From Patescibacteria group bacterium (lineage in GTDB: Bacteria; Patescibacteriota; Minisyncoccia; Phycocordibacterales; JBBTRF01), in assembly GCA_038065315.1 (NCBI GenBank), contig JBBTRF010000001.1, positions 528,458-592,457 on the forward strand: a stretch of DNA of 64,000 nt, read 5' to 3'. Position 1 is the first letter of the stretch. The number at the start of each line of letters is the position of its first letter. The notes under the pieces were generated by a model. The model made no database searches and was not told the DNA's origin. It saw nothing but the letters and a program-made list of their open reading frames with translations. The position numbers and the translations under genes are program-made. Of this stretch, positions 10,975 to 30,412 are shown in pieces.

Positions 10975-11005
10975 ATGTGTATCTTACACTACAAGACCTC
11001 TTCGA

Positions 11006-14292: not shown

Positions 14293-15108
14293 ATGCATCT
14301 TCCCGCTAAAAAGTCGCTCGGCCAAAACTTCCTCAAGTCTAAAGAGGCGGTGCGTGACATCGTGTCCGCCGCCGATATTCAGCCTGGCGATAATATCCTT
14401 GAAATTGGCCCTGGAAAGGGCGTTTTGACCGAGGCATTACTCGCGAAACTCTCCACCGGTGGCCGCCTCATCGCCATCGAAAAAGACGATCGCATGATCC
14501 CGCTCTTGCGCGAAGCCTTCGCTGGCTCACTCGCTTCGGGCAAGCTCATCCTCATCCACGGCGATATCTTGGAAATGACCGTCGAAAAGCTCGCTGAGTG
14601 CGGCCTACGCGAAGGGCAGTACAAAATCATCGCCAACATTCCGTACTACATCACCGGACAGCTCCTCCGCATGTTCCTCGAGTCGGCATACCAGCCAAGC
14701 AAGATGGTGCTGATGCTGCAAAAAGAAGTGGCGCAACGCATCGTGGCACGCGACGGCAAAGAAAGCATCCTCTCGATCAGCGTGAAAGCATATGGCACAC
14801 CAAAATATGTCGCCAAAGTACCGGCAAAATATTTTTCTCCAGAGCCGGCGGTGGATTCGGCGATTCTGCTCATCGATGCCATCTCGAAACAATTTTTCAG
14901 CAAAAATCAGCTCAGCGAATCGGCTTTTTTTGAAACAGTGAAGCTCGGATTTTCACACAAGCGCAAAATTCTCGCGAGCAATTTAGAAATCCCCAGCGAC
15001 CAACGTGTTCAGACGCTTTCAGCAATCGGCCTCGAAGAAAAGGTACGGGCTGAGGAAGTCGCGATAGAGCAGTGGGCTGCACTCGCAAAAATATTTCGTA
15101 CAGACTAA
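14293..15108 (+). CDS. rsmA: 16S rRNA (adenine1518/1519-N6)-dimethyltransferase RsmA/KsgA
   Basis: KKSLGQNFL...ILEIGPGKGVLTEAL...IANIPYYIT. Confidence 0.9.
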   Translation: MHLPAKKSLGQNFLKSKEAVRDIVSAADIQPGDNILEIGPGKGVLTEALLAKLSTGGRLIAIEKDDRMIPLLREAFAGSLASGKLILIHGDILEMTVEKLAECGLREGQYKIIANIPYYITGQLLRMFLESAYQPSKMVLMLQKEVAQRIVARDGKESILSISVKAYGTPKYVAKVPAKYFSPEPAVDSAILLIDAISKQFFSKNQLSESAFFETVKLGFSHKRKILASNLEIPSDQRVQTLSAIGLEEKVRAEEVAIEQWAALAKIFRTD

Positions 15109-16565
15109 CGCCTAATACGGATATCCGCCATCACCACGCTCGGATCGGTCGATGTGTTGATGAATTCTCCGAGAGGATCAATGATCGCAGACTCCAAACC
15201 CTTCGTAGACACAATAAAGTACTTGCCAGACTGAACCGCACGCAGAAGAGTGACCTGTCGGCCGCGACGCGCCACAATGTCGGAACCAAAAATAGCATCA
15301 TTGCCACTGATCGTCACGAGATCTGCACTGGCGCGTCGCGAAGTAGCATCCGAATACAAGACCTCCGAACAAATCAGCGGGGAAATGCGTCCCAAACCTG
15401 TCTCAAACACAAAGGAGTCCACCTGACCACCACCGACCGATGCGGAACTAAAGTCTCCTTCAGAGAGAGGCAGGAGGTGGCGCTTGTGATAGAGCTGTCG
15501 AAGCTGTCCGGCTTCGATATACGCCACTGAATTGAACAAGTGTTCATCTTTTTTGCTGTGCAGACCGATCAGAAACACTTTTTTCGGATGAGCAGTCGAC
15601 CAGCCAAGTATTTTGTCGTATACCGCTTTTATTGTCGAGCTTGGCAGTTCGTATCCGAGAGGGAGCATCGTGTTTTCATCAATGACAACAAACGAAACAG
15701 CATTTTCCGGAAGCACGACAAGATTCGCCCCTGCCGCCAAAGCGGTTTCTACGGCTTTTTCATAGTAACGAAACCCGACCAAGCCCACACTTTCTTCTTG
15801 TGTAGTGAGTGTAGAATGGATAGCTGCCACCCGAACGGGATCACCGAGCGGCTCAGCATTGATTCGATAATACCCATAGGACCATATCGCCAAAAAAGCG
15901 AGTAGGCTGGCCATAAAGTGGCGCGGTCGGCGCCATTCCAAGCTCCATCGATACAAGCAGATATTCATCGCCACCGCAAAAAATCCGAGTCCGTAGATAC
16001 CGACGAGGTGCGCGAATTGTCGAATATATTCCTGCGGTGCCAGACTAATACCGAGCTCTTGCCAGGCGATGCCGCCCGGGACAAACGACCGCGCATATTC
16101 GAGGATCGTCCAACACGCCGCGACGAACAAAATCTGCACGAACCAGTGGCGAATAGGGGAGTCTTTGGCAAAGATGCGTTTGTATGCAAGTGAAAATAAA
16201 ATAAAGAACGGCACGTCGCCAATCAACGCGAGAAGAGCGAGAAATCCATAGAGAGCGAGCTCTTTGTGTTGAAAGAGCAGACTGCTTTGCTCCAGCCACC
16301 ACCATGCGTTCGTGCTCGCCAACGGAAACAGCGTGAAGATACCGTACAAAAAACCTGTCACGCCGGCACCGATGCATATCGTCCGCGTATTTTTGGCGCG
16401 ATCGATGAAGACGAGAAGCGGAATGATCGCAATATACACACACCAGCTGAGCTCGAGCGGCGGGAAAGCAGCGAGTAACAGTGCGGCTGACAAAATAGGG
16501 AGTAAAAACAACATCGTATAATTGTAACGCACTTTTGCACGAGCAGAGTGATATAATGCAGTCAC
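15105..16565 (-). CDS. lnt: apolipoprotein N-acyltransferase
   Basis: Polytopic N-terminal membrane domain followed by a C-terminal CN-hydrolase domain (VAAIHST...LVVLPENAVS...ICSEVLY). Confidence 0.8.
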   Translation of the reverse strand: MTALYHSARAKVRYNYTMLFLLPILSAALLLAAFPPLELSWCVYIAIIPLLVFIDRAKNTRTICIGAGVTGFLYGIFTLFPLASTNAWWWLEQSSLLFQHKELALYGFLALLALIGDVPFFILFSLAYKRIFAKDSPIRHWFVQILFVAACWTILEYARSFVPGGIAWQELGISLAPQEYIRQFAHLVGIYGLGFFAVAMNICLYRWSLEWRRPRHFMASLLAFLAIWSYGYYRINAEPLGDPVRVAAIHSTLTTQEESVGLVGFRYYEKAVETALAAGANLVVLPENAVSFVVIDENTMLPLGYELPSSTIKAVYDKILGWSTAHPKKVFLIGLHSKKDEHLFNSVAYIEAGQLRQLYHKRHLLPLSEGDFSSASVGGGQVDSFVFETGLGRISPLICSEVLYSDATSRRASADLVTISGNDAIFGSDIVARRGRQVTLLRAVQSGKYFIVSTKGLESAIIDPLGEFINTSTDPSVVMADIRIRR

Positions 16566-16568
16566 TCA

Positions 16569-17579
16569 ATGGCTAGATTTTCTGCAAAACACTTTTTGCT
16601 TGCCGCTGTCGTGCTTTTTCTTTTGCCCAGAATAACCCTCGCCAACGATCCGGTCTTCACTCGGACACTACGGATCGGTGATTTTGGTGCAGATGTACAG
16701 CTATTGCAACAGAAATTAAACACTGACAGCGAAACACGTGTCGCGGAAGATGGTCCTGGATCTCCGGGACAAGAGACGGCGCTGTTTGGTATGCGGACAC
16801 AGGCAGCCGTGATCCGTTTTCAAGAAAAAAATGCCGAGAAGATACTGGCACCGCTCGGATTGAGTAGCGGTACAGGAGTAGTGGGGGAAGCGACCAGACG
16901 AGTCTTGAATGAAGTGTTTGCTCAAACAAAAACTCCGGTTCTCACCACGCCAGTAACGAACACGGCACCCGCACCGACAACCTCTGCGACAACGCCTGTC
17001 GAAAAAACCGACCTGTATATCACCTTCCCCTCGAGCTACTACGGACCACGAGGTTCCAAACTCACACTCGCCGGCAACGGCTTCACCAAGACAGGAAATA
17101 CCCTTTATCTTGGCCCTAATTTCAGTATTTCAAACATACCGTCGAGCGGCGGAGCGAGTCTCACCGCGACGATTCCCAATGACGCACCATATGGCAAACA
17201 CGTCATTTGGGTGGAAAATGCCAACGGCAAGACCCTCAACACGAGCTTCTACGTCGTGACGAAAGAAGGATCTGCGCCACCGACGATCACCAGCGTCAGC
17301 CCTGAAAGCGGCCTCTATGGACAACAAGTGACCGTCCACGGCAAGAACTTCGCACCGAAGGGGAATGAGATTTTGACAAACTATCATATAATAAAAGAAG
17401 TTCCTTCTCCGGATGGAACAACACTCACGTTCTCTGTCGCGCCATTCCCCGAGATCCCGCAACTACAAGTCGGAGTCGACTTGAAGAGGGGCATCGAAGC
17501 AGCGATGACATTCTACGTTGTGAACGAGAATGGTGTAAGCAACAAAGAAAAGCCGGGGAAGTTTACGATCAAAATCTAA
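16569..17579 (+). CDS. secreted protein: peptidoglycan-binding (PG_binding_1-like) domain followed by IPT/TIG-like beta domains
   Basis: It has a signal peptide (FLLAAVVLFLLPRITLA). The motifs LRIGDFGADVQLLQQKLN and GMRTQAAVIRFQEKN make up the PG-binding domain. Repeated GNG.../NTSFYVV beta-rich segments follow. It is the first gene of the 16569-30412 single-strand cluster. Confidence 0.55.
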   Translation: MARFSAKHFLLAAVVLFLLPRITLANDPVFTRTLRIGDFGADVQLLQQKLNTDSETRVAEDGPGSPGQETALFGMRTQAAVIRFQEKNAEKILAPLGLSSGTGVVGEATRRVLNEVFAQTKTPVLTTPVTNTAPAPTTSATTPVEKTDLYITFPSSYYGPRGSKLTLAGNGFTKTGNTLYLGPNFSISNIPSSGGASLTATIPNDAPYGKHVIWVENANGKTLNTSFYVVTKEGSAPPTITSVSPESGLYGQQVTVHGKNFAPKGNEILTNYHIIKEVPSPDGTTLTFSVAPFPEIPQLQVGVDLKRGIEAAMTFYVVNENGVSNKEKPGKFTIKI

Positions 17580-17951
17580 ATGTGCGCCTTTTTTCAAAAA
17601 TACCGCCTCTCCATCGCCATCATTTTGGCAGCCTGTTTGATTGCGGGGACTTTCGTATACAGAGCCGGCGCGACTGTCGGCTTGCCATTCGGCGGATTGA
17701 TCGTGTCCACGGTGTACTGCACCTGTACCAACGCCTTCCTCATCACCATCGCCACACCGATTCCGGGCAACTATCTCTACTTTCCGGGCACTCCACAATT
17801 TGCATGGTACCAGCTCCCTCGACCAGGTGTGTGGACGCTTGGCCTCTTTGCCCCCGGCGGCGCCTGCTTGATGTTTGCCGGAAAAGCTGGGTGTGTACCC
17901 TATGCATTACAGCCTTTTGGTACAATTATGTTTGCAGGCACCTCGCTCTAG
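17580..17951 (+). CDS. small Cys-containing secreted/membrane protein, hypothetical
   Basis: 123-aa ORF starting 1 nt after the previous stop. It has a hydrophobic N-terminus and 6 Cys residues. Confidence 0.35.
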   Translation: MCAFFQKYRLSIAIILAACLIAGTFVYRAGATVGLPFGGLIVSTVYCTCTNAFLITIATPIPGNYLYFPGTPQFAWYQLPRPGVWTLGLFAPGGACLMFAGKAGCVPYALQPFGTIMFAGTSL

Positions 17952-17969
17952 TCTCTACACGAAAGTACC

Positions 17970-18863
17970 ATGAACCCTACATACAAAAAAATCATCGTTG
18001 GTGTCGTCGTACTCGCTGCCGTGGCGGGGACAGTAATGCTTGGCTACACTAGCAAAAGTATTGACCTCGGAAATGGCACCGAGAATGGGGAGGTCAGCGG
18101 TGGCGTGCAAATTCAGGCGGTCTCCAGCAGCAATTCCGACCTGTTCAAGGACACTTTCAACACTTCGGGCACCGAAAACGGCATTTCAACGACCGAATCC
18201 AAGGTTTCTGAGGCTGAAAAGAGCTTCGAGCAGCGCAATCTCACCGACCGCATCTCTATCGACCTCTTCGCAAAGTATCTCTTCCTCAAGAACAATGGGC
18301 AGGAAATCACCCCTGAGGTGCAGGAGTCGCTGGTGAAGAACGTCATTGAGGAAAATACCCAAAAGATCGAGTACATTACCTATACGGGGGCTAATCTTGG
18401 ACTTATTTCAGCACCAACAACTGAGCAGCTCAAAACCTACGGCAACGCATTGATCACTCTGGTCATCGAAAATTCACCAAAAGATAGCTCGCAGAACGAG
18501 CTCACTTTGCTTGCTACTATGGCGGAAAGCGGGGCGAATTCAGAAAATCTCGCTCAACTCAAGGCGATTTCTACGGCATATACGACAGTGGGGCAGAAAT
18601 TAGTGAAAATGACCATCCCAAGCGATGCAAAACCTCTCCAAGTCGCCCTTGCCAACGTCGCCGGACGGATCGGCGTCAATATCGCCAACTTTACCGTATT
18701 CGAGACCGACCCAGTAACCTCCATCGCGCATGTTTCGGCATATGACCAAAATGTTACCGACCTCAATACCGTACTGAAATCTTTTGGCGCCTACTTCGCA
18801 AAAAAGGGCGTTGTATTCTCCACAAAAGAGCCTGGTTATGCCTTTACCCTTCTCGGGCAGTGA
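17970..18863 (+). CDS. membrane-anchored hypothetical protein
   Basis: An N-terminal TM helix (IIVGVVVLAAVAGTVML) is followed by a Thr/Ser/Glu-rich extracytoplasmic domain. Confidence 0.4.
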   Translation: MNPTYKKIIVGVVVLAAVAGTVMLGYTSKSIDLGNGTENGEVSGGVQIQAVSSSNSDLFKDTFNTSGTENGISTTESKVSEAEKSFEQRNLTDRISIDLFAKYLFLKNNGQEITPEVQESLVKNVIEENTQKIEYITYTGANLGLISAPTTEQLKTYGNALITLVIENSPKDSSQNELTLLATMAESGANSENLAQLKAISTAYTTVGQKLVKMTIPSDAKPLQVALANVAGRIGVNIANFTVFETDPVTSIAHVSAYDQNVTDLNTVLKSFGAYFAKKGVVFSTKEPGYAFTLLGQ

Positions 18864-18877
18864 GATAAAATTGTGAG

Positions 18878-19810
18878 GTGAAGCGATTTCGCATTGCAAA
18901 TGCGGGAAAAAACGCGATATGCTTTTTTCTCCTGACTGCCATTCTCCTTGTTACCCTCGTACCGAGCGACTTACCCCTTGTTGCCCCACGAAAAGCTGAG
19001 GCGTTCTTCTTTGGATGCCCACCTGGACTATCCTCAGGAGTGGTGACCAGTGCTGCTGGCGCAAACGCTATACCTGCGGTACCAATCATTAATCTTGGAC
19101 TATTTACGGTGAACGCACAGGCAGCACTGAACACCGGCAGCATCACTGATCGAAAATGCTATCTCGACTTCATAGTCAAAACGCTCGCAAAAGCCGTCGT
19201 CCATGCACTCGTCTCTTCCATCATCGATTGGATCAATCGCGGCTTCGAAGGGGGACCGACTTTCGTCACTGATCCCGCGGGCTTCTTCGGCAATATTGCC
19301 GACCAGGAAATTGGCCGCATGATCGACGGTTCGGCACTCGGCTTCGTCTGCGACCCGTTCCGCCTCCAACTTCAGCTCTCATTCCTTCAGCAACGCAATC
19401 GCAACGTGTCACCGTCCCGATGCAGCATCACGAGCATCGTGCAGAATTTCCAAGGCTTCGTGGGTGGCGACTTTAGCCAGGGCGGTTGGCCAGGTTGGAT
19501 CTCCATGACCAGCCAGGCGCAGAACAATCCGTTCGGCTCGCAGCTCATGGCTGAAGAAATTGTTGCCGCAAAGATCACCAGTCGACAAAATACGGCAAAG
19601 GTTTCGCTCGATTGGGGCAAGGGTTTTAAATCATTGCTGTCGAGCGACGGCACGATCAAGACCCCTGGTTCGCTGATCAACGACCAGCTCAGCAAGGCAA
19701 CAGGGAACGAGCTTGACTACCTCAACCTTGCTCGAGAATTCGATGACATCGTGATCGCCTTAGCTAACCTAGGTATCAGCCAGATCATGAGTGGCGGGCT
19801 GAAAAAATAA
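18878..19810 (+). CDS. secreted hypothetical protein
   Basis: Signal/TM (ICFFLLTAILLVTLV) followed by a globular domain. It is tightly packed within the cluster. Confidence 0.4.
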   Translation: MKRFRIANAGKNAICFFLLTAILLVTLVPSDLPLVAPRKAEAFFFGCPPGLSSGVVTSAAGANAIPAVPIINLGLFTVNAQAALNTGSITDRKCYLDFIVKTLAKAVVHALVSSIIDWINRGFEGGPTFVTDPAGFFGNIADQEIGRMIDGSALGFVCDPFRLQLQLSFLQQRNRNVSPSRCSITSIVQNFQGFVGGDFSQGGWPGWISMTSQAQNNPFGSQLMAEEIVAAKITSRQNTAKVSLDWGKGFKSLLSSDGTIKTPGSLINDQLSKATGNELDYLNLAREFDDIVIALANLGISQIMSGGLKK

Positions 19811-19811
19811 G

Positions 19812-22517
19812 ATGAAATCACACTTTGCATACAAATGGTTAGCGGGCGGAATCATGGTACTGCTTTTGACCTGTTCAGTATTTGCGGGCGTCGTCTCCGC
19901 ACAGACAGAGGGTACCAACGAGACAGCGCCGCCGGTAGCACCAGCGACACAACCGGAAGAGGGCACGGACGAAACAGCGCCGCCGGCGCCCCCAGCTAAT
20001 CCAAACGCCGATACCGACTCACTCGAGCAGACATCGAATACCAACCCCCTCTCGAACCAAAACCCTAACGCGGCCACCGATGCGTTTGAGCAGAGCTCTG
20101 GAAATACTTCGGCAAATAGTGCGAGTCAGAATCCAACCGATCCAAAGCAGGCTGGTGGAAGCGGGGACAAGGAAACAGCTTTCGCGTGGCGAATGCTGAA
20201 TCCATACTATTTTATTCCTGCAGGAATGCGAATACTCGGCAATACAATCCTCATGCTTTTTGGTTGGGTGCTCGGCTTGGTTGGCCTGATCTTCAACTTC
20301 ATCATCGATAAAACGATCGTCAATCTAAAGACGACCATCGATAGCCTCGGTGTCATCACCGACATTTGGAAAGTGATCCGAGATTTCATCAACCTCTTCT
20401 TCATTTTCGCATTGCTGTACGCCGCGGTAGGTACGATACTCGGCCTAGACAAAGTGGATTGGAAAAAAACCGTTGGCAACTTGGTGTTGGCAGCGCTCCT
20501 GATCAACTTCAGCCTTTTCATTACCAAAGCCGCTCTCGACCTTTCCAACATTGTCACTATCGGCTTCTATAGCCAACTTCCAGGGGTAGGGGTAGTGTCG
20601 ACCAACCCGACTCAGAACCAATCGCATGCCGGCGGTATTTCCAATAGCATCATGCAGTCCCTGAAATTGGAAACGATCTACAAACCAAACTACACCGGAA
20701 CAGTACAGGGAGATACCGCCAATAGTCCAGTGACTGCCTTCGCCTACATCCTCTCCACCGTCATGGGCAGCATTTTCATCTGCGTCACTATTGTGGTGAT
20801 GGTCGCAGCATGCTGGCTCTTCCTCAAGCGATTCATCGATATTATCTTCCTCATGATCCGTTCGCCGATCGCTTTTGCCGGCCTCGTCCTCCCACAGCTA
20901 GATGAATATCAAAGCAACTGGTGGAAGGAGCTGAAGGCAAACATGCTGTTCCCACCGGTGTACATGGCGATGATGTGGATCACCTTCAAGATCCTCCAGA
21001 GCCCGGGCTTCCAAACAGTCGCTCCTGGCGTTGACGGCTTCTCTGGACTCTTCTCGACTCTGAGCGGTACCACCGTGAACATCGTCTTCCGCTTTATCGT
21101 CGTGATCGCCATGATGGTCTACGCGCTCAAGAGTGCTGGAAAAGTCGGCGTGGAGGGTGGCGAAGTGTTCAACGACTTCCTCAAGAAGAAGCGTGGGCAA
21201 TTGGCCGGTGTTGTGGGCCGAAATACTGCTGGTCGCGCCGCTGCATGGGCGCAGGACAAAAATAGTTCTGTCGGTCAGGCGTTGCGAAAATTGGAATCTG
21301 TACCAATCATTGGCTCTGCTACGAGCAAGGCAATCACCGGTAGCCTAAAGGATGTTTCCGGTGCCGGATTCGGCGGAGCAAAAGGTGGCTTTGATGCGGC
21401 AGTGAAGGCAGAGGCAAAATATGCGAAGGAAGGATACACACGAGTAGGAGAGAAAGCGGAGTTCAGGGAGCGTGCACCGATCAAGCCGGATGAACCGACT
21501 CGAAAGGAGGGCGAGACCAATACTTCTTTCATAAACAGGAGAAGTGTCTATGATGAAAAGGTAAAAGAGTACGAGGAAGCGAATGTAGATTATACCTCCC
21601 GAAAAGAAACCTTCGAGGAAAAACAGAAGGAAAATGCTGAGGCCCGTCAGAAGCAATTCCGTGGAAATTACGAAAAGACATCTCTCTTCCAGAAGAACCG
21701 AGACTCAGACAAGCCGATCTTTGCGGAAAATCAGGCAGCGTTAGAAGCGATTGACAAGGATATTAAAGAAAATGACAAGAAAAAGCAAAAGACCGAAAAG
21801 GCAAAAGCGGACCTAGAACGCATCAAGGCTGAACAAGCAGAAGCAGAGGAGGGGATGCTTGAATCCTACAGAGCGTACGCAGAGGCTGCGGCCCCAGTGG
21901 CGCCGACCCAGGAAGCTGGTGAGACTGATGCCGTGTTCACAAATCGAAAGCTCGACTATCAAACAAGCAAGGCTGCGCACGAGACAGCAACAGCCCGCCT
22001 TACCTCACTATTGAAGGAGAAGTTTGATGACATCACCGACGACGCAGTGAGAGCCGAAAAGATCAGGGAGAATAAACAGGCGGTCAAAAATGTTCTCGAC
22101 GGAATGAAGGCTCTCGAAAACAGCAAGGCTGCGCAGGAGGAAGCGGAAATTGCCGAAAAAGAAGCCCGCATGAAGGCTATCGAGATTGAGCTTAAGGGTC
22201 TAGACGAAGAAAAGCGCACAAAAGAGAAGCCGACCACCGAAGCAAATATCTTAAGGTTGCAGGGAGAATTGGTAGCAGCAACTCGGTCGGTGAGAGCCAT
22301 GGAACGAAACCCTGAAAAGCGTACGGGTCACTTAAGAACCGCTGAGTCGCGTAGAAGTGAGGCTGCCACAAAGCGTGAACAGGTGATCACTCGAGAAAAT
22401 CAAATACTTCAGGAAGAAAAACTCGATTCACTCGGAAAAGATCTCGGGGATGTGAAAGAAAAGACCAGTAAGAAAGATGAAGACGGTGGGGGAGGCAAGA
22501 AAGAGGAGAAGAAGTAG
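19812..22517 (+). CDS. VirB6/TrbL-like polytopic T4SS membrane protein with Pro-rich N-terminal repeats and long C-terminal K/E-rich coiled-coil
   Basis: It has a signal peptide and imperfect EGT[ND]ETAPP repeats, then about 6-7 TM helices (for example ILGNTILMLFGWVLGLVGLIFNFII and FICVTIVVMVAACWLFL). A C-terminal K/E-rich predicted coiled-coil of about 350 aa follows. It lies 2 nt after the previous gene. Confidence 0.5.
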   Translation: MKSHFAYKWLAGGIMVLLLTCSVFAGVVSAQTEGTNETAPPVAPATQPEEGTDETAPPAPPANPNADTDSLEQTSNTNPLSNQNPNAATDAFEQSSGNTSANSASQNPTDPKQAGGSGDKETAFAWRMLNPYYFIPAGMRILGNTILMLFGWVLGLVGLIFNFIIDKTIVNLKTTIDSLGVITDIWKVIRDFINLFFIFALLYAAVGTILGLDKVDWKKTVGNLVLAALLINFSLFITKAALDLSNIVTIGFYSQLPGVGVVSTNPTQNQSHAGGISNSIMQSLKLETIYKPNYTGTVQGDTANSPVTAFAYILSTVMGSIFICVTIVVMVAACWLFLKRFIDIIFLMIRSPIAFAGLVLPQLDEYQSNWWKELKANMLFPPVYMAMMWITFKILQSPGFQTVAPGVDGFSGLFSTLSGTTVNIVFRFIVVIAMMVYALKSAGKVGVEGGEVFNDFLKKKRGQLAGVVGRNTAGRAAAWAQDKNSSVGQALRKLESVPIIGSATSKAITGSLKDVSGAGFGGAKGGFDAAVKAEAKYAKEGYTRVGEKAEFRERAPIKPDEPTRKEGETNTSFINRRSVYDEKVKEYEEANVDYTSRKETFEEKQKENAEARQKQFRGNYEKTSLFQKNRDSDKPIFAENQAALEAIDKDIKENDKKKQKTEKAKADLERIKAEQAEAEEGMLESYRAYAEAAAPVAPTQEAGETDAVFTNRKLDYQTSKAAHETATARLTSLLKEKFDDITDDAVRAEKIRENKQAVKNVLDGMKALENSKAAQEEAEIAEKEARMKAIEIELKGLDEEKRTKEKPTTEANILRLQGELVAATRSVRAMERNPEKRTGHLRTAESRRSEAATKREQVITRENQILQEEKLDSLGKDLGDVKEKTSKKDEDGGGGKKEEKK

Positions 22518-22529
22518 CACGATTACATC

Positions 22530-23126
22530 ATGGCAAAAAAATCAATACAAACTGTCGCAGAAATGAAAAGCTATTTTGATAGCCTTCCTTCTGATATCCG
22601 TGATGTGTTGACGGATGAACGCCTGGACAAGGAAATTACCCAATATTGCAAGGAGAGTGGCGTGGGGAATGTTGGCAAGGTATTGATAGACTTAACCACA
22701 TCTACCTTGATGGCTATTCAGCCGATCAAAGGATTTGTTGGACGAATCGCCCAAGCTGCGAACATTCCGACATCAGTTGCTCAAAAAATCGCCAACGAGA
22801 TCAACGAAAACATCTTCCGGCCGGTCCGACAGTCACTCATCAAGATCCACGAGATCCCGCCCAACGAACAGGCGCAGATCCCCGCAGTAGAGCCGCACTT
22901 CGAACACCTCCTCGAAATCCATGCACCGAGCATGATCGCGCTCGCGAAGCCAGCGGCAGCCAAAGTAGCACCAGTCGTGCAACAAACATCACCCATGCGC
23001 CCACCAGCGACACAGGTCGCTCCCAAAACCCTCGCGGAACAGAAGATGAGCCGTCCGACCAGCCTGCCGCCCCAAATTTCTCGCACCAGCAACGAGCCGG
23101 ACCCGTACCGCGAGCCGATCGCTTAG
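22530..23126 (+). CDS. hypothetical soluble protein in T4SS-like cluster
   Basis: 198-aa ORF with no TM segment. Confidence 0.4.
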   Translation: MAKKSIQTVAEMKSYFDSLPSDIRDVLTDERLDKEITQYCKESGVGNVGKVLIDLTTSTLMAIQPIKGFVGRIAQAANIPTSVAQKIANEINENIFRPVRQSLIKIHEIPPNEQAQIPAVEPHFEHLLEIHAPSMIALAKPAAAKVAPVVQQTSPMRPPATQVAPKTLAEQKMSRPTSLPPQISRTSNEPDPYREPIA

Positions 23127-23180
23127 GTCGTCGCTGCGCAGGTGCGTCGGCATTTCTCAAGGCTGCGGTATAATATCTAC

Positions 23181-23630
23181 ATGCGATTTCAAGTTCCACA
23201 ATTCATCGAGGTGGAGGACAAAATCATTGGTCCGCTGACCATCAAGCAATTCATCTACATCGCCGGTGGGGCAGGTATGTGCTTTGTGCTCATCCGTTAC
23301 CTTGGACTGCTCTTCGGCATCATGGCAGCCCTCCCGGTGGGTGCCTTTGCCCTCGCCCTCGCTTTCTACCACCCAAACGAACGCCAAACCTTCATTCTTT
23401 TCGTCGAAAACGTCTTCAAATATTTCGTTGGCAAAAAACTCTATATCTGGAAGAAGCAGGACAAGAAGCCGGTAGCTAGGACAACCGAGGAGCGCGAGGC
23501 GAGTAGTGATCTCGATAATCTCTACGTACCCCGCCTCGCCGACAGCAAGCTGAAAGACATGACCTGGAGCCTGGATGTAAAGACCAAGGAGCTCGCCAAC
23601 CCCGTCACGAAGAACAACAAACAAGTATAA
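23181..23630 (+). CDS. PrgI/VirB3-like small membrane protein
   Basis: MRFQVPQFIEVEDKIIGPLTIKQFIYIAGGAGMCFVLIRYLGLLFGIMAALPVGAFALALAF is the PrgI-family pattern (two TM helices). The ATG at 23181 is preferred over the listed 23142. Confidence 0.45.
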   Translation: MRFQVPQFIEVEDKIIGPLTIKQFIYIAGGAGMCFVLIRYLGLLFGIMAALPVGAFALALAFYHPNERQTFILFVENVFKYFVGKKLYIWKKQDKKPVARTTEEREASSDLDNLYVPRLADSKLKDMTWSLDVKTKELANPVTKNNKQV

Positions 23631-23654
23631 TCGGGTATAATAGAGCAAAGTACC

Positions 23655-24287
23655 ATGGCCCTCACCAAATCCGCACCAAGCCAACAATTTGTCCCTCTCA
23701 AAGAGGTGAGGGATGGCATTGCTATTCTGAAAGACGGCTCGATGCGCGCACTTCTTCTCACCTCATCGCTCAACTTCGCACTTAAATCCGCGGAGAGTCA
23801 GGAAGCGATCATCTACCAATTCCAAAACTTTCTCAATTCGCTCGACTTCACCGTGCAGATCTTCGTGTCTTCACGCCGCCTCGACATTCGCCCATACATT
23901 GCCCTCCTTGAAAACCGCTACAAGGAACAAACAGGGGAGCTGCTGCGCCTCCAGACCCGCGAATACATTGAATTCATCAAGAAATTCACCGAGTCGGCCA
24001 ATATCATGACGAAAAGCTTCTTCGTCGTCGTGCCGTACGGTTCGGCCGTACTCAACAAAAACAGTGCTTCTGGCCTATTCAGCAAAAAAGATAAGCAAAA
24101 AGAAACGGCTCAGAAAAGTGAGGCTTTCGAGGAGGCGAAATCGCAGATCCAACAGCGTGTGAGCGTGGTGGAGCAGGGGCTCACGCGCGTCGGTATTCGC
24201 GTGGCACAGCTGGGAACCGAAGAGATCATCGAGCTCTTCTACAAGATCTTTAATCCCGGTGAAACGGACAAGCCGATTCAGCTATAA
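23655..24287 (+). CDS. hypothetical protein, T4SS-like cluster
   Basis: 210-aa soluble ORF immediately upstream of virB4-like. Confidence 0.4.
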   Translation: MALTKSAPSQQFVPLKEVRDGIAILKDGSMRALLLTSSLNFALKSAESQEAIIYQFQNFLNSLDFTVQIFVSSRRLDIRPYIALLENRYKEQTGELLRLQTREYIEFIKKFTESANIMTKSFFVVVPYGSAVLNKNSASGLFSKKDKQKETAQKSEAFEEAKSQIQQRVSVVEQGLTRVGIRVAQLGTEEIIELFYKIFNPGETDKPIQL

Positions 24288-24295
24288 TCAATCCC

Positions 24296-26146
24296 ATGGG
24301 ACTTTTCTCAAACATATTCAACAAGAAGGGGGGCGGGGATGCCGAGATGAAGGCGTCGATTTTGCCGCAGGATATCTACAATGCTGCTGCCCTCGACCTG
24401 AAAGATGTCATCGCTCCTTCTGCGCTCAAGGTGAGCCCTCGTTCGCTCAACCTCGGCGAAAAGCTCGTCCGCACGTTCTTTGTCATTTCGTACCCTCGAT
24501 ACCTCTCCGAAGGTTGGTTTTCGCCGATCATCAACCTCGACAAGATCTTCGATATTTCTATTTTTATTCACCCAATCGACACCGCGCAAGTACTCCGCCA
24601 ATTCCAGAAAAAGGTGGCTGAGGTATCGAGCCAGATTCACGGCCGCGAGCGCAAAGGTCTCGTCCGCGACCCAATGCTCGACACCGCATACCAAGACCTC
24701 GAATCGCTTCGTGACAATCTCATGCAAGCCCAAGAAAAACTCTTTGATGTCGGTCTCTATATCTCTATCTACGGCGACACGGAGCAAGATCTCGACAAGA
24801 TCGAGAGCGAAATCAAGTCGATCCTCGAAGCGAAACTTATCTACCTCCGCCCAGCACTCTTCCAGCAAGAGCAGGGCTTGCGTAGCGTATTACCAATCGC
24901 AACCGACGAGCTGAACGTGCTTTCGAAACTCAATTCATCGCCGCTCTCCAGCCTTTTCCCGTTCACCTCTTTCGACCTCACTTCTGACAAAGGCATTTTG
25001 TATGGCATCAACCGCCACAACTCTTCACTCGTGCTTTTCGACCGTTTCTCCCTCGAAAACTACAACTCCATTACCTTCGCGAAGTCCGGTTCTGGAAAAT
25101 CATACTGTACGAAGCTCGAAATTCTTCGAACACTGATGTTTGACACCGAGGTGATCGTCATCGACCCAGAAAAAGAATACGAGTACATGGCCCAGGCCAC
25201 GGGAGGAAAGTACTTCAACATCTCGCTCAATTCGCCGCACCACATTAACCCTTTCGACCTGCCGACACCGCGCGAGGATGAATCCGCGGCAGACGTGCTC
25301 CGCTCAAACATCATCAACCTGGTGGGTATTTTCCGTATCATGCTTAGTGGCCTCACTCCGGAGGAGGACGCGATCATCGACCGCGCCATCACTGAAACCT
25401 ACGCACTCAAAGACATCACCCCCGATGCCGACCTCACCAAAGTCGAGGCGCCGCTCATGTCCGACTTTGAGCTCGTGCTCGCCGGCATGCAGGGAGCGGA
25501 GTCACTCGTGCAACGCCTCACCAAATACACCCGCGGCACTTGGTCGGGCTTCCTCAACAAGCCAACCAACGTTGACATCAACAACAAATTCATCGTCTTC
25601 TCCCTCCGCGACATGGAAGAGGAGCTCAAGCCGGTAGCGATGTACATTGTCACACACTTCATTTGGAACGCGGTGCGCAAAAATCTCCGCAAGCGCCTGC
25701 TCGTGATCGACGAGGCATGGTGGATGATGAAGTCCGAAGATACGGCTTCATTCCTGCTTAGTTTGGCAAAACGAGGCCGAAAATACTATCTCGGACTCGC
25801 TACCATCACCCAGGACGTGGACGACTTTTTGAAGTCTCCGTACGGCTTGCCGATTATCACCAACTCTTCCATTCAGATCCTCTTGAAACAGTCGCCGACC
25901 TCGATCGACAAGCTCCAAGCGACCTTCAACCTCACCGACGAGGAAAAATTCTTGCTCCTCGAATCCAGTGTCGGCGAAGGTCTCTTCTTCGTGGGCCTAA
26001 AACATGTCGCGATCAAGATTATTGCCTCATACACCGAGGACCAGATCATCACTTCCGACCCATCGCAGATTTTGGCCATCCAGAAGGCCAAGGCCGAACT
26101 TTCTGCGAGCACCGACGGGAGAGAGGGCGGGGGAGCGGCGAAATAA
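24296..26146 (+). CDS. VirB4/TrbE/CagE-like type IV secretion ATPase
   Basis: Walker A ITFAKSGSGKSYCT and Walker B-like VIVIDPEKEY...LLVIDEAWWMM (AAA_10/DUF87-like architecture). Length is 616 aa. Confidence 0.8.
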   Translation: MGLFSNIFNKKGGGDAEMKASILPQDIYNAAALDLKDVIAPSALKVSPRSLNLGEKLVRTFFVISYPRYLSEGWFSPIINLDKIFDISIFIHPIDTAQVLRQFQKKVAEVSSQIHGRERKGLVRDPMLDTAYQDLESLRDNLMQAQEKLFDVGLYISIYGDTEQDLDKIESEIKSILEAKLIYLRPALFQQEQGLRSVLPIATDELNVLSKLNSSPLSSLFPFTSFDLTSDKGILYGINRHNSSLVLFDRFSLENYNSITFAKSGSGKSYCTKLEILRTLMFDTEVIVIDPEKEYEYMAQATGGKYFNISLNSPHHINPFDLPTPREDESAADVLRSNIINLVGIFRIMLSGLTPEEDAIIDRAITETYALKDITPDADLTKVEAPLMSDFELVLAGMQGAESLVQRLTKYTRGTWSGFLNKPTNVDINNKFIVFSLRDMEEELKPVAMYIVTHFIWNAVRKNLRKRLLVIDEAWWMMKSEDTASFLLSLAKRGRKYYLGLATITQDVDDFLKSPYGLPIITNSSIQILLKQSPTSIDKLQATFNLTDEEKFLLLESSVGEGLFFVGLKHVAIKIIASYTEDQIITSDPSQILAIQKAKAELSASTDGREGGGAAK

Positions 26147-26173
26147 TCCTGCGCACGGGCGCATACCACTACC

Positions 26174-26683
26174 ATGGCAGCCAAAAAACCTGAACCCATC
26201 ACCAATCTCGGCTGGTTTTTCCTTATTGCCTTTACCATTTTTGTCGACATTTTGCAGATCGTGCTAGACCTAGCTTTTGGTGCCGGTGTCATCGCAAATC
26301 GTATCATCGATGTGGGGTTTGCTTTTGCCCTCCTCCTTATTTTTCACCTAAAAGACATTCCTCTCACGCCGGCGCAATACGCCAGCATCGCCGCGGCTTT
26401 TGTCGGCGAAGAAATTCCAGCTCTGGACGCTCTCCCCATGTGGACATTAGATGTCGTGTATATTTGCGCAAGCATCAAGGGCCAGGAAGTCGCCGAGAAA
26501 GCAGGGGTGGCAGGAAAGGTGGCAGTGATGGCTCTGAAAGCTGCAAAGAAAGCTGACGGTAAAGAGCTGTTTACCGATGAGCAAGGAGCCCTCTCCGGAG
26601 GAACTGAATCAAAATTACCCTTATCAACCCCCGAACACCTCCCGACCAACACCGTAGACCTTCGACCATCCGGAAAAGCCTAA
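26174..26683 (+). CDS. polytopic membrane protein, hypothetical (T4SS-like cluster)
   Basis: 3-4 predicted TM helices (WFFLIAFTIFVDILQIVLDLAFGAGVIANRIIDVGFAFALLLIF). Confidence 0.45.
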   Translation: MAAKKPEPITNLGWFFLIAFTIFVDILQIVLDLAFGAGVIANRIIDVGFAFALLLIFHLKDIPLTPAQYASIAAAFVGEEIPALDALPMWTLDVVYICASIKGQEVAEKAGVAGKVAVMALKAAKKADGKELFTDEQGALSGGTESKLPLSTPEHLPTNTVDLRPSGKA

Positions 26684-26736
26684 TATTACGAAAGTTATTC
26701 ACTCCGACCGCCGGACCTTTGTGATAAAATAGAGCA

Positions 26737-27954
26737 ATGAGATCTCCCAATGTTCTCACCTATGCCATTGCATCTTTTTGCCTATGTGTCATTTCTCTAT
26801 GGGGGATCGGCACTATCTCAATCGCCACCGCAGACGCCCAAGCAGCTGGCTCAGGGGCCGGAACAGCAACAACCTCGGCCTCATCAGCAAGCTCCACCCC
26901 CCAGGAGGATGCGCTTGACGCCCTGCTAAAACAGCTCACTGCCACTTCGAGCATTCCGGACTATCTGAAAAATGCCAAGCCACCCACGGAAGCGGACATT
27001 CCTGAGTTGCCCGAAGAGTTTAAAAAAGCACCACTCAATGTCGTCTTGAATCCGGAATATCCAGCAGCCTTCCAAGATGTCGTGGCGAGTGTCGACAGCT
27101 ACTCTGCAGATATGGATCGCAGTACGATCACCTGGTCGCTCAATGGCAAAGTGCTACAAAAGGGTATTGGTGCCAAAAATTTCCGCTTCAAAGCCGGGAA
27201 GAATGGTAGCTACACCACACTCACTGTGTCGATCCTCGCAAACGGCATCACGAGCACGCAAAATCTCAGCATCACTCCTGCCACCGTCGACCTGCTCTGG
27301 CAATCTGATTCTTACGTCCCACCTTTCTACAAAGGTAAGGCTCTTTTCTCTCACCAGAGCGGCATTAAGGTTGTGGCCGTACCAAACATCTTTACCAAAG
27401 ATGGCGTGTTGATCCCGAGCTCAAAGCTCATCTACCGATGGAAGCTCGACAAGGAGTTTGTCGCAGCCGCATCGGGCGTCGGCAAAAATATTGTTACTTT
27501 CAGAGATGGAATACCGGTAAATGAGAAGCAGATAAGTGTCGAGGTATCAACGGCAGACACGAGCGTAAAGACAGTTGGGCAAATCTTCCTACATAGTGTT
27601 GGCACTGCACCGGTCTTGTACCAAGACACCCCGCTCACCGGCATTTCGTATGAACGCGCCCTGCCAAGCAGCCTGAACCTCGCTGATTCCGAAATGAAGT
27701 TGGTGATCGAACCATACTTTTTCTCTGTGAAGAGCCGTGATAGTAACAATCTGTACTATTCCTGGTCACTGAATGGCAAAAATGTTCCCGATGTCACCCG
27801 TAGCAGTATCGTTTTTAAAGTACCTGACACCGAGAAGGGAAGTGCTCAGGTGAATGTCGAGCTCCGTCAGCCGACCAAAGTCTTCCAGACCAATGCCACC
27901 GCTCTTATTATCAATTTTGTGAGTCCCGGCAGTGCCAGCAAATCACTCTTTTAA
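26737..27954 (+). CDS. secreted hypothetical protein
   Basis: Signal peptide (LCVISLWGIGTISIATADA) followed by a beta-rich body. Confidence 0.45.
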   Translation: MRSPNVLTYAIASFCLCVISLWGIGTISIATADAQAAGSGAGTATTSASSASSTPQEDALDALLKQLTATSSIPDYLKNAKPPTEADIPELPEEFKKAPLNVVLNPEYPAAFQDVVASVDSYSADMDRSTITWSLNGKVLQKGIGAKNFRFKAGKNGSYTTLTVSILANGITSTQNLSITPATVDLLWQSDSYVPPFYKGKALFSHQSGIKVVAVPNIFTKDGVLIPSSKLIYRWKLDKEFVAAASGVGKNIVTFRDGIPVNEKQISVEVSTADTSVKTVGQIFLHSVGTAPVLYQDTPLTGISYERALPSSLNLADSEMKLVIEPYFFSVKSRDSNNLYYSWSLNGKNVPDVTRSSIVFKVPDTEKGSAQVNVELRQPTKVFQTNATALIINFVSPGSASKSLF

Positions 27955-27957
27955 TCC

Positions 27958-29088
27958 ATGACTATGAGTACTCTCAACAGAATAAGGAATGTCTTGGTAC
28001 TTGCGAGTGCATTCCTTCTACTTGCCAGCACTGTAGCCCCGATGAGTGTCTTTGCGGCTTTTGCGGGCGAAAAAGACTATGTCCTTTTGGCACCGATTCC
28101 CGGAACATACAACGAGGGAAGTTGCGCGGCAGGTACGATCAATACCTACAACGCCGGCGGCGCTTTTAGTGGCAACGGCGCGGGTACCATAAACTGCACA
28201 ACGGATTTTGTTACGTATCTCAAAGGTTTTTTCCGCCTCGTGATCTCACTTTCATCGATTATTGCCGTACTTGTGATCACCTTCGAGGGCTTCAAGTTGG
28301 CCATCTCTACGAGCGAAGGTGCTCGCGAGACGGCTAAAGAACGGATCGAACAGGCCCTTATTGGTCTCGGCCTCGTCCTTGGTTCATATCTCATTTTGAA
28401 CACGATCAATCCGCAGCTCACGAAAATTAACTTTTATGTCGACAAGATTTCCGATGCGGGACTTACCGGTTCGTCAGCTTTTCTGCAGGATGGGTTGAGT
28501 CAGGCTCTGGTAAATGAACGCGAGCAGGCGGCCTTCGCGGCACGCTCTGAAGCTTCGAGAGTTGCCAATGAGGCATTCAGCGCAGCAGTGACACCACTTC
28601 GAACAGAGCTTGCGGCACTTAAAGCAGAGTGTGAAAATGAACCAGCCGAAACAGAGGCTGAGTGTCTCTTGGGAAATGCTGGGAGAATACAAGAGTTGGA
28701 AGATCAGATTAAGGTTGCCGAAATTTCCACCGATAAGCAGGCGGCAATTAATATTATCCAGACTCTCGGCGACACACAATTCAATCAGCTGGTGAAGCCG
28801 ATCGAAAAAACCGATGACCGTTTGGCGGATATTGCCCAAATGAGAAATCTTGCAAAGCTGCAGATTGCCACGGTAAAAAATGAGACCCAAGCGCGTGTGG
28901 CAGATTTGATCGCAAAAGGGCGAGGGGAGGATGCTGCGGCGGTGCTCGCTGAATCAAATAAAGTTATTGCTGATATGAATGCCAAAATAGAGCATCGTGT
29001 ACGCTGTCCTTACTCAGACTATAACGTCCAAGCTGTTTCAGGAGGTAGTGTGGGAGGTGCCGCACCAAATATAACACCCTGTTATTAA
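27958..29088 (+). CDS. pilin-like protein with VirB2/TrbC-type topology plus coiled-coil C-terminal extension
   Basis: A signal peptide and a Cys-containing segment come first. Then two hydrophobic helices (FFRLVISLSSIIAVLVITF / ALIGLGLVLGSYLILNTI) are separated by a short polar loop, as in T4SS pilins. A long helical tail follows. Confidence 0.4.
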   Translation: MTMSTLNRIRNVLVLASAFLLLASTVAPMSVFAAFAGEKDYVLLAPIPGTYNEGSCAAGTINTYNAGGAFSGNGAGTINCTTDFVTYLKGFFRLVISLSSIIAVLVITFEGFKLAISTSEGARETAKERIEQALIGLGLVLGSYLILNTINPQLTKINFYVDKISDAGLTGSSAFLQDGLSQALVNEREQAAFAARSEASRVANEAFSAAVTPLRTELAALKAECENEPAETEAECLLGNAGRIQELEDQIKVAEISTDKQAAINIIQTLGDTQFNQLVKPIEKTDDRLADIAQMRNLAKLQIATVKNETQARVADLIAKGRGEDAAAVLAESNKVIADMNAKIEHRVRCPYSDYNVQAVSGGSVGGAAPNITPCY

Positions 29089-29089
29089 C

Positions 29090-30412
29090 ATGAAAAAAAG
29101 TACCGCATACACAATCCTAGGAATCATCATCGGTATCGTCATTGTCGCGCTGGGCGTGTTGTATTTTGTCTTTCTGAGAACACCGGGGGTGGTAGATCCT
29201 GGTCCGGACGTCAACAACGAAGGGAAGGCAGACCGAGGCGGTTTCGATGGCACGGTTGACGACACTGAGCCAGTAACTCCTGTCGAACCAAAAACTCCAA
29301 TAGCCACCACTACGGGGGAGCGACCGGAACCACCAAAACTTCGAAAGATATCGACTGGACCGATAGCTGGAGGCATTGCCTACGACACAACCATCAAAAC
29401 AGGCAAGGTGAGTGTGACGGAGACCCACATCCGCTTCATCGACCGCATCAATGGCGCGATCCACGAAACCCGTACCGACGTTTTGGACACCCAGAAGATT
29501 GCCAGTGCTTCGATTCAGAAGATTCGCGAGGCGTTTTGGGCAAAAGACGGCGCTAGTGTGTACATCCGATATGTCACCGACGCCAACCCATACACCATCG
29601 AGACATATCTCGCTAAACTCGTACCTTCGAAGACCGCGTCCTCTTCACAGGCGGCACTCCCAAGTGACATCAGCTTCCTTCCACAAGAGGTGCGCGGCAA
29701 CTATCTCACTCGCAATCTCAAAGAAGTCCTACCTTCACCATTTACCCTCGGCACTATTTTCTACACCTTGCCAAAAGGTGCGGACCTGCAAGGTATCATC
29801 TCGAGCAAGGACGATACTAAAAGGGTAGAGGTGCTCAACTCACCAATCACCGAGTGGACCAGTCAGTGGCTCGCCTCGAATTTGTTCGCCATCACCACAA
29901 AAGCCTCAACTTTCTCAGATGGCTTCCTGTACTTCCTCAACACCGACACCCAGAAGCTCGACCGCGTGCTCGGCAACATCCGTGGCCTCACCACTCTTGC
30001 GAGCGCCGACCAAAAATATGTGATCTACTCGAACTCCAGAGATGATGGCTTCACCACACGACTTTTCAATACCAAGACTGGTCTGCTCGAGCAATTCTCA
30101 TTCACCGTATTGCCGGAAAAATGTGTCTGGAGCAAGAAACAAGTCGCGGTCGTGTATTGTGCCGTACCACAGTACCTTCCAAGTGGGCTCTACCCCGACG
30201 GTTGGTATCAAGGCGTTGTCAGCTTCACCGACGATCTCTGGAGAATCGACGCTTCGACCGGCTCCACAAAGCTCCTCGCCAGTCTCGCCGCAGTCTCAAA
30301 AGAAGAAATCGACGTGATCCGACCATTCCTCGATCCGCAAGAAAAATACCTCTTCTTCACCAACAAGCGTGATGGCGCTTTCTGGAACCTACTTCTTCCG
30401 ACGAATAAATAG
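29090..30412 (+). CDS. membrane-anchored hypothetical protein (last gene of cluster)
   Basis: N-terminal TM (ILGIIIGIVIVALGVLYFVFL) and a beta-rich extracytoplasmic domain. Its 3' end overlaps the convergent yidC by 24 nt. Confidence 0.45.
   Translation: MKKSTAYTILGIIIGIVIVALGVLYFVFLRTPGVVDPGPDVNNEGKADRGGFDGTVDDTEPVTPVEPKTPIATTTGERPEPPKLRKISTGPIAGGIAYDTTIKTGKVSVTETHIRFIDRINGAIHETRTDVLDTQKIASASIQKIREAFWAKDGASVYIRYVTDANPYTIETYLAKLVPSKTASSSQAALPSDISFLPQEVRGNYLTRNLKEVLPSPFTLGTIFYTLPKGADLQGIISSKDDTKRVEVLNSPITEWTSQWLASNLFAITTKASTFSDGFLYFLNTDTQKLDRVLGNIRGLTTLASADQKYVIYSNSRDDGFTTRLFNTKTGLLEQFSFTVLPEKCVWSKKQVAVVYCAVPQYLPSGLYPDGWYQGVVSFTDDLWRIDASTGSTKLLASLAAVSKEEIDVIRPFLDPQEKYLFFTNKRDGAFWNLLLPTNK

Follow-up and report, generated by a model that had tools for sequence, protein, structure and literature searches.

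A conserved chromosomal type IV secretion gene cluster of the Patescibacteria and its likely non-conjugative role

Our analysis describes a cluster of 13 genes at positions 16569-30412 of a 64,000-nucleotide stretch of DNA, here called the window, from a Patescibacteria group bacterium (GenBank assembly GCA_038065315.1, contig JBBTRF010000001.1, positions 528,458 to 592,457 of the forward strand). We interpret this cluster, with a probability of about 0.85, as a chromosomal and non-conjugative type IV secretion system (T4SS) of the Patescibacteria, which would derive from the monoderm conjugation machinery of the MPF-FATA type and likely serve contact-dependent exchange with a host cell. The 13 genes clearly form one functional cluster, and their arrangement is far beyond chance, because the same gene order is found in about 80 species-level genomes. 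An earlier reading of this DNA, made from its letters without database searches (the sequence-only reading), had described 13 co-oriented open reading frames (ORFs) here, and all of these are present on the + strand. It had put the gaps between them at 1-50 nucleotides (nt), most below 10 nt; they are indeed short, but this slightly overstates the case, as they measure 0, 18, 14, 1, 12, 15, 24, 8, 27, 53, 3 and 1 nt from o1 to o13, a range of 0-53 nt with 5 of the 12 below 10 nt. The genes are as follows (TM, transmembrane; aa, amino acids).

o1, 16569-17579, + strand: secreted protein with a PG_binding_1 domain and two IPT/TIG domains
o2, 17580-17951, + strand: small cysteine-containing secreted or membrane protein, paired with o1
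o3, 17970-18863, + strand: extracytoplasmic domain on a single N-terminal TM anchor
o4, 18878-19810, + strand: conserved protein with a signal or TM anchor, encoded just before the VirB6-like gene; short member of a large family
o5, 19812-22517, + strand: polytopic membrane protein, VirB6-like and extended by a long charged tail at the C-terminus
o6, 22530-23126, + strand: soluble accessory protein (no TM helix) with a C-terminal DPYREPI peptide
o7, 23142-23630, + strand: PrgI/VirB3-like protein with two TM helices; start probably at ATG 23181
o8, 23655-24287, + strand: TrsD/TraD-like protein, the detached VirB4 N-terminal domain
o9, 24296-26146, + strand: motor domain of VirB4, an ATPase of the monoderm CD1110/MPF-FATA type
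o10, 26174-26683, + strand: small membrane protein with 2-3 TM helices
o11, 26737-27954, + strand: secreted protein with three tandem homologous domains of ~100 aa, probably immunoglobulin (Ig)-like beta-sandwiches
o12, 27958-29088, + strand: T4SS pilin domain of the VirB2 type, extended at the C-terminus by ~225 aa of helical sequence
o13, 29090-30412, + strand: N-terminal TM anchor with a probable TolB-like beta-propeller ectodomain

Motor, membrane and pilin components

The motor of the system is o9, which carries the Walker A sequence AKSGSGKS and the Walker B sequence LLVIDEAW, and whose earlier designation as a VirB4/TrbE ATPase is borne out by hidden Markov model (HMM) searches. It scores 381.9 bits against the NCBIfam model of the CD1110-family VirB4-like ATPase (NF045971, cut-off 325) over model positions 183-733 of 752, and it matches the Pfam families P-loop_TraG (1.2e-28), AAA_10 and DUF87. 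The best solved relatives are the Thermoanaerobacter VirB4 (PDB 4ag5, 7e-41) and TrwK/VirB4 (1e-7). A protein identical to o9 occurs in the metagenome-assembled genome GCA_964355935.1 and in contigs from Hainich groundwater 0.1-µm filter fractions, and the first 120 clusters listed in the protein search are all homologues with 81-98% identity; where the organism names among these are informative they read Taylorbacteria, Yanofskybacteria, Paceibacterota and Parcubacteria, all of them Patescibacteria. Among the proteins of the plasmid collection, the nearest VirB4 reaches only 35% identity.

The part of VirB4 that is absent from o9 is covered by o8, which matches positions 2-123 of the same CD1110 model, positions 100-233 of the NCBIfam model for Mbov_0397, the VirB4 of a Mycoplasma integrative and conjugative element (ICE), and TrsD at 7.7e-6; its precomputed annotation is PF26593 (TraC-like). 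On these matches VirB4 is encoded by two genes, o8 and o9. The split is not a frameshift artefact, because o8 is a stand-alone gene of ~213 aa in 78 related loci and is likewise separate in a relative from the Bacillota, Pontibacillus (118 bits). The nine uncharacterised partners counted by the sequence-only reading are in consequence eight, since o8 is the TrsD-like N-terminal domain of VirB4.

Two further components are recognised directly by their Pfam families, as the sequence-only reading had proposed from their topology. The PrgI/VirB3-like protein o7 scores 32.7 bits against PrgI (PF12666, cut-off 27); the gene caller gives it a length of 149 aa, and its start is probably ATG 23181. The pilin-topology protein o12, which has a signal peptide and two TM helices, matches T4SS_pilin (PF18895) with 28.6 bits (cut-off 26.6) over residues 84-148, and the NCBIfam model of the Mbov_0395 pilin-like conjugal protein at 8.9e-7. 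An extension of at least 100 aa follows the second pilin helix in 47 of the 58 o12 orthologues, with a median of 193 aa, and assuming the usual VirB2 topology it would lie outside the cell.

In the largest protein, o5, a signal peptide and ~6-7 hydrophobic helices are followed by a C-terminal tail of 454 aa, 40% of whose residues are charged; the Pro-rich repeats reported earlier are found as two imperfect copies of EGT(N/D)ETAPP. Its earlier description as a VirB6-like protein with 6-7 TM helices, which makes it a polytopic protein of this type near virB4, is supported by the predicted helices, by homologues (4 of 27 match the Pfam family TrbL/VirB6, and several carry the precomputed annotations PF19590 or PF04610), and by a Foldseek search with the predicted o5 structure, in which TrwI chains rank first. 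The charged C-terminal tail recurs in 58 of 59 orthologues (median length 370 aa, median net charge +11), and because of this long charged tail o5 is an 'extended VirB6' in the sense of a 2025 review (PMC12857230). These family assignments, the Patescibacteria among the VirB4 relatives and the 0.1-µm groundwater fractions uphold the sequence-only view of the cluster as a non-conjugative T4SS of ultra-small episymbionts.

Conservation and chromosomal setting

To find relatives, one genome of each GTDB species was scanned, which yielded 80 loci with a VirB4 identity of 76-96%. In ~80 species the order is collinear, reading uvrD-ksgA-...-o3-o4-o5-(o6)-o7-o8-o9-(o10)-o11-o12-o13-yidC(-)-rnpA(-)-dnaA-dnaN. 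Within the block from o3 to o13 eight genes are detected by homology and o3 weakly so; o6 and o10 are seldom detected by tblastn and are recognised by position, as positional analogues with conserved motifs in both families. In 20 relatives a homologue of o1 adjoins the cluster, mostly from the opposite strand; o1 and o2 stay together in 17 relatives, where the pair usually diverges from o3. Because o1 and o2 are mostly on the opposite strand, and in only ~20 relatives, the conserved unit is an 11-gene block, o3-o13, with a neighbouring o1-o2 module. The gene-order comparison thus agrees with the sequence-only reading on the kind of system, since o3-o13 is syntenic in ~80 species and the published RAAC4_OD1_1 locus has the same layout; the set of partners, which it had called unusual, is in fact conserved by homology or position across ~80 Paceibacteria species.

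The components differ greatly in their rate of change. The median identity of o9 is 79.5% over 79 species, whereas in the same loci it is 61.7% for o8, 59.8% for DnaA, 54.5% for UvrD, 51.4% for DnaN, 50% for KsgA, 49.3% for o7 and 47.6% for YidC, and for all the extracytoplasmic partners it falls to 25-35%. The VirB4 motor is thus more constrained than the replication initiator, and the exposed parts evolve fast. The cytoplasmic motor exceeds DnaA in conservation, and the surface parts evolve about as fast as antigens.

The cluster is flanked upstream by genes for the UvrD/PcrA helicase, KsgA/RsmA and Lnt, and downstream by those for YidC, RnpA, DnaA and DnaN. Because o3-o13 is syntenic in about 80 Paceibacteria species, we regard the cluster as part of the core chromosome rather than as a mobile element. 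This bears on the possibility that it is an ordinary conjugative element (an ICE or an integrated plasmid) with its relaxase and coupling protein encoded beyond the ends of the window. VirB4, PrgI, TrsD and VirB6 are conjugation-type parts and the nearest plasmid VirB4 proteins are found in conjugative elements of the Bacillota, but we consider such an element almost certainly the wrong explanation, given that the same ksgA and yidC-rnpA-dnaA context is kept in ~80 species, that the GC content (~0.51) is uniform over the cluster and its flanks, and that VirB4 is more conserved than DnaA. Relaxases, moreover, were reported in only 103 of 3,035 Patescibacteria genomes (Quinonero-Coronel et al. 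2025, PMC12102498).

The window itself points the same way. Its ORFs of at least 120 aa that were judged likely genes were compared with Pfam over the full 64 kb, and these scanned ORFs include no relaxase, no VirD4/TcpA-type coupling protein (type IV coupling protein, T4CP), no VirB11 and no integrase, in keeping with the sequence-only reading, which had seen no relaxase, VirD4 or VirB11. Since the cluster has neither a relaxase nor a coupling protein linked to it, DNA conjugation is unlikely.

The gene dnaA lies at 32221-33567. Six of the 19 matches to the DnaA box with at most one mismatch fall in 32140-32159 and 33570-33797, that is, 5' of dnaA and in the dnaA-dnaN spacer, and the sole perfect TTATCCACA in the window is in this spacer. 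Because of this clustering and the only perfect TTATCCACA, oriC is probably located in the dnaA-dnaN spacer, and the 3' end of the T4SS cluster is ~3 kb from this likely origin. Transcription of the cluster runs towards the putative oriC, with the same orientation in all related loci; if replication forks start there, the cluster is head-on to replication. The GC skew of the window is confounded by the coding strand. At the other end, a comparison of window positions 15105-17951 with the related loci L007-L085 places o1-o2 in the orientation of the cluster here and in locus L006, inverted relative to most relatives. Apart from the lineage of the window itself, only L006 and, weakly, L076 among the relatives have lnt at the 5' position; an apolipoprotein N-acyltransferase is an odd gene for a presumed monoderm.

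Partner proteins, promoters and other window genes

The NCBIfam search returned nothing for o1-o6, o10, o11 and o13. The 5' protein o1 has a hydrophobic N-terminal signal and matches PG_binding_1 (23.9 bits, cut-off 23) and TIG (37.6 bits), which agrees with the peptidoglycan (PG)-binding/IPT protein placed there by the sequence-only reading. Its partner o2 has an N-terminal TM or signal segment, and Pfam and NCBIfam searches gave no family match. The anchored protein o3, with its TM helix at residues 8-26, is found in 34 relatives at ~25% identity; bacterial TSP3 (Ca-binding) repeats occur in 10 of 32 orthologues and a PDB search gave no match. As a candidate VirB8-like protein o3 has neither PDB nor Pfam support.

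The o4 protein is found in 57 relatives and has the conserved motif IDWIN.GFEGGP.FVTDP. It belongs to a family of 6215 representatives (E<=1e-3) whose typical member has ~530 aa and a coiled-coil C-terminus that o4 lacks; the family profile, run against 1.84 billion representatives, found strong members of the family and no tie to a known one. One o4 homologue matched DUF4141 at 1e-3, which may be a TraI family of Bacteroidetes. The AlphaFold model of o4 is poor (predicted local distance difference test, pLDDT, 57; predicted template modelling score, pTM, 0.24), the Foldseek search with it was empty, and the PDB profile search matched only coiled coils of the long-form C-terminus. The position of o4 before the VirB6-like gene had made it a candidate for a VirB5-like stalk or tip protein, which these results neither support nor exclude. 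Profiles of o3, o4, o11 and o13 gave no PDB match to VirB8, TcpC, TraM or PrgL, a structure having been predicted, of these four, for o4 only.

In 49 of 49 loci the interval from o5 to o7 contains a soluble ORF, 180-400 aa long. In 47 of 50 o6 orthologues the sequence DPY[RHK]E occurs within the last 15 residues, the consensus being DPYREPI, and of the three remaining orthologues two come close to the motif; in the window this peptide is encoded at about 23100-23123. The rest of o6 is poorly conserved apart from a second motif, IENPTP, in the middle of the protein, and no Pfam, NCBIfam or PDB family matches it. The conserved terminus fits a docking peptide, and we infer that o8 and o9, which are similarly conserved, are its obvious candidate partners.

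About 52 of 62 loci have, between o9 and o11, an ORF that encodes 110-200 aa and 2-3 TM helices. This o10 family has an invariant Asp in its first TM helix and the motif E.IP....LP.WT; a PDB search gave no match. Its identification as a second pilin or a VirB3 paralogue was rejected, with a probability below 2% to pilin or PrgI in hhalign, which was run between families on selected pairs. The secreted protein o11 has a signal peptide and is found in 74 relatives. Its three domains of ~100 aa are internal repeats (hhalign probability 91-97%), and weak matches to Hoc (0.0032) and BiPBP_C suggest that they are probably Ig-like beta-sandwiches. For o13, which has a TM helix at residues 9-27 and a conserved Cys pair, the family profile weakly matches 12 distinct TolB sequences in the PDB (best E 0.012) and orthologues match the propeller families PD40, DPPIV_N and DUF5050; these weak but convergent matches indicate that the ectodomain is probably a beta-propeller.

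The sequence-only reading had treated all 13 genes as a single operon. A scan of positions 14-33 kb with consensus promoters and terminators did no better than shuffled sequence. A different signal is found at the start codons: a TANNNT hexamer begins exactly 12 nt 5' of the start in 15 of 44 window genes, against an expectation of 0.37 (P ~1e-20), and Shine-Dalgarno motifs are nearly absent from the window. Starts with such a -10-like box include 3285, 12260, 18878, 23181, 26737, 31099(-), 42790(-), 45001(-) and 46295. Because of these -12 positions and the near-absence of Shine-Dalgarno motifs, the pattern suggests that leaderless mRNAs are the norm in the source organism; we found nothing specific in the literature on leaderless translation in the candidate phyla radiation. 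Inside the cluster the boxes lie 5' of o4, o7, o9 and o11, and slightly farther upstream for o1 and o8. In front of o7 the sequence TATAAT begins at -12 from ATG 23181, and a -10-like box is found there in 41 of 62 orthologues; in related genomes the signal also lies upstream of o7, o8, yidC and dnaN. A single transcript of 13 genes is not established and is probably wrong, because of these internal leaderless-type -10 boxes and the inversion of o1-o2, which are on the opposite strand in most relatives.

Within the cluster the only PG-related domain is the PG-binding domain of o1, and there is no VirB1-type hydrolase. A LysM+M23 hydrolase is encoded outside it at 11006-12094, 4.5 kb upstream, and this M23 enzyme could replace the missing VirB1 function, as has been suggested for other Patescibacteria. 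The same gene belongs to a cell-wall group on the - strand at 8556-12094, outside the conserved block, consisting of a Mur ligase, a FemAB-family transferase and the LysM(x2)+Peptidase_M23 protein. Where the sequence-only reading had seen two PG-binding proteins elsewhere in the window, one was found, a PG_binding_1 protein at 53117-53776. The PilB-type ATPase that it had placed at 43304-45001 (- strand) is confirmed by T2SSE (8.5e-118) and MshEN; this gene sits between ruvB and small unassigned ORFs (45080-46265), with no recognised pilus assembly genes adjoining among the scanned ORFs. Other window genes encode PNPase, ComM, PBP1, TyrRS, RuvABC, PolA and Fpg. ORFs of 300-440 aa at 5215-6546 (+), 49648-50733 (-) and 63033-63971 (-) have no Pfam family, and the first of these also gave no convincing NCBIfam match.

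Proposed function and comparison with known systems

The Patescibacteria account for a large share of bacterial diversity and are host-dependent, and their T4SS is essential in the one lineage in which this could be tested: transposon sequencing showed the T4SS and pilins to be essential for the epibiotic growth of Southlakia epibionticum, whose T4SS was noted to lack coupling and relaxase proteins (Wang et al. 2023, PMC10633639). The parts list of the present cluster and its conservation are direct results; the steps of the mechanism that we propose follow by analogy with R388 and with models of Gram-positive T4SSs. In this mechanism the two-gene VirB4 (o8 and o9) would dock at the membrane via the PrgI/VirB3-like o7, and the VirB6-like o5, possibly with o10, would provide a membrane platform or channel. 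VirB4 would pull the pilin-domain protein o12 from the membrane and polymerise it on this platform into a tube or fibre, with the C-terminal extension of o12 facing outward. The fast-evolving secreted and anchored proteins o1-o4, o11 and o13 would constitute the wall-spanning, host-contacting part, and the soluble o6 may be a cytoplasmic accessory, probably binding the equally conserved ATPase, so that the tail of o5 and o6 would act on the cytoplasmic side. The likely role of such an assembly would be contact-dependent exchange with the host cell in episymbiosis.

Several points weigh against this interpretation. The function of the cluster is only inferred, by analogy. The VirB6 assignment of o5 depends on a predicted structure with moderate scores (TM-score ~0.4-0.5, Foldseek E 0.016), and o5 itself has no direct HMM match in Pfam or NCBIfam; the 225-aa extension of o12 may not fit a canonical VirB2 filament; and no VirB8-like or VirB1-like component was identified within the cluster. 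Most Patescibacteria are reported to have VirD4-like genes, and these T4CP homologues are mostly distant from virB4 (PMC12102498), so that a coupling protein could be encoded elsewhere in the genome.

The large outward-facing extension on the pilin-domain protein, the abundance of surface proteins built with Ig-like, TIG, propeller and PG-binding modules, and the lack of a substrate-recruiting T4CP nearby would also suit a T4SS core that only assembles an attachment fibre or adhesin and translocates no substrate. We judge this improbable: a separate type IV pilus system (PilB) already serves adhesion in the Patescibacteria (PMC12857230), and the conserved VirB6 platform with its cytoplasmic tail, together with the cytoplasmic o6, suggests a cytoplasm-facing function beyond that of a fibre.

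A further explanation holds that the machinery works inward, as a T4CP-less importer of nucleic acids or nutrients resembling ComB or Ced, feeding a cell that is unable to make nucleotides. T4CP-less uptake systems are established, the review of Patescibacteria T4SS work speculates on uptake via the pilus as a conduit (PMC12857230), and a 2026 preprint on a cultivated member of the Minisyncoccota (the Patescibacteria phylum) describes tubes that are possibly T4SS pili, and feeding on host RNA. Within the window the lack of a coupling protein or relaxase is consistent with such a role, as is the net positive VirB6 tail in most o5 orthologues. The cluster shares with Helicobacter ComB and the archaeal Ced system a VirB4-family ATPase without relaxase or T4CP, and VirB2-like and VirB6-like parts, and o9 has a P-loop stretch in common with CedB (2.4e-9). 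This CedB match is, however, partial, at 36 bits against a cut-off of 700, and in the same NCBIfam test CedD reached 15.6 bits against 600 and no CedA-type match was obtained; ComB differs in its diderm VirB7/9/10 core, of which no VirB7/9/10-like match was found here. In S. epibionticum comEC is dispensable and the T4SS essential, so that ComEC uptake is not the essential role (PMC12857230). On balance we regard an importer as unlikely. A bolder reading, which we hold to be distinctly unlikely, would make the eight unassigned conserved genes more than passive decoration of the wall, namely a coupling-protein-independent substrate module, in which o6 and the o5 tail recruit or receive nucleic acid or protein at VirB4; this would place the apparatus in a functional class new to T4SSs, such as an importer of host RNA or DNA, common to Bacillota clusters such as that of Pontibacillus.

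A non-conjugative T4SS for contact-dependent exchange remains our preferred interpretation, and its origin can be approached by comparison with monoderm MPF-FATA conjugative systems (pGO1/pSK41 Trs, pIP501 Tra, pCF10 Prg/Pcf and the C. difficile CD1110-type elements). These share with the cluster a CD1110-family VirB4 (32% identity), PrgI and a VirB6/TrbL-like protein, and the pGO1 subclass also shares the TrsD-type split of the VirB4 N-terminus. The MPF-FATA elements have a VirD4-like T4CP, a relaxase, an SLT/CHAP hydrolase and mobile DNA, none of which is part of this cluster, whereas pilin-domain genes, present here, are generally missing from them. The conjugative C. botulinum pCDC3875 has an unsplit VirB4 with VirD4, VirB6, PrgI and an SLT hydrolase, in contrast to the split VirB4 of the cluster.

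A closer counterpart is an uncharacterised T4SS-like cluster of the Bacillota, at 350336-361354 of the 898-kb replicon NZ_CP062975.1 of Pontibacillus sp. ALD_SL1 (locus L086). Its short VirB4 (35% identity) is accompanied by the separate TrsD-like gene noted above, by a VirB3-like gene and by two pilin-like genes that score 33-37 bits against the o12 profile. A polytopic protein of 779 aa, whose tail is long and charged, aligns with o5 (hhalign 91%), and no T4CP or relaxase was found within 10 kb. It differs in its Bacillota genome, in its flanks of flagellar genes and in a 1050-aa M23 peptidase, and homologues of o3, o4, o6, o11 and o13 are not detectable in it. A cluster of this type may represent the monoderm source lineage of the Patescibacteria T4SS, with the pilin already present.

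The kind of system described here and its layout were already published between 2023 and 2025. In 3,035 Patescibacteria genomes VirB4 forms a monophyletic clade nested in MPF-FATA, with TrsD as the commonest companion and VirB3/PrgI, VirB6 and PF18895 VirB2-like pilins near virB4, and the Paceibacteria T4SS neighbourhood comprises dnaA, dnaN, rnpA, ksgA and rpmH (PMC12102498). The present cluster shares with these published systems a VirB4 with an adjacent TrsD-like gene, PrgI/VirB3, VirB6 and the PF18895 pilin; like them it lacks a linked relaxase or T4CP, and like those of the Paceibacteria it lies on the chromosome close to dnaA, dnaN, rnpA and ksgA. Its order, VirB6-x-VirB3-TrsD-VirB4-x-VirB2, is that given for RAAC4_OD1_1 (Paceibacteria) in Table S3 of the same study; in that RAAC4_OD1_1 example o1-o4, o6, o10, o11 and o13 were given no T4SS-component assignment. 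It differs from the Saccharimonadia in having one pilin gene with a long C-terminal extension instead of arrays of 2-11 short pilins, and from S. epibionticum (SEML1_0006-0019) in having no peptidase/lysozyme gene, which lies there just 3' of virB4. The locus thus adds no new kind of system; it gives a clean and complete example from the Paceibacteria with a parts list gene by gene, to which our analysis adds a conservation map, the C-terminal motif of o6, the repeats of o11, the probable propeller of o13, the pilin extension, the look-alike cluster in the Bacillota and the leaderless promoter signature. Once Paceibacteria are in culture, these results could help to direct structural studies and genetics.

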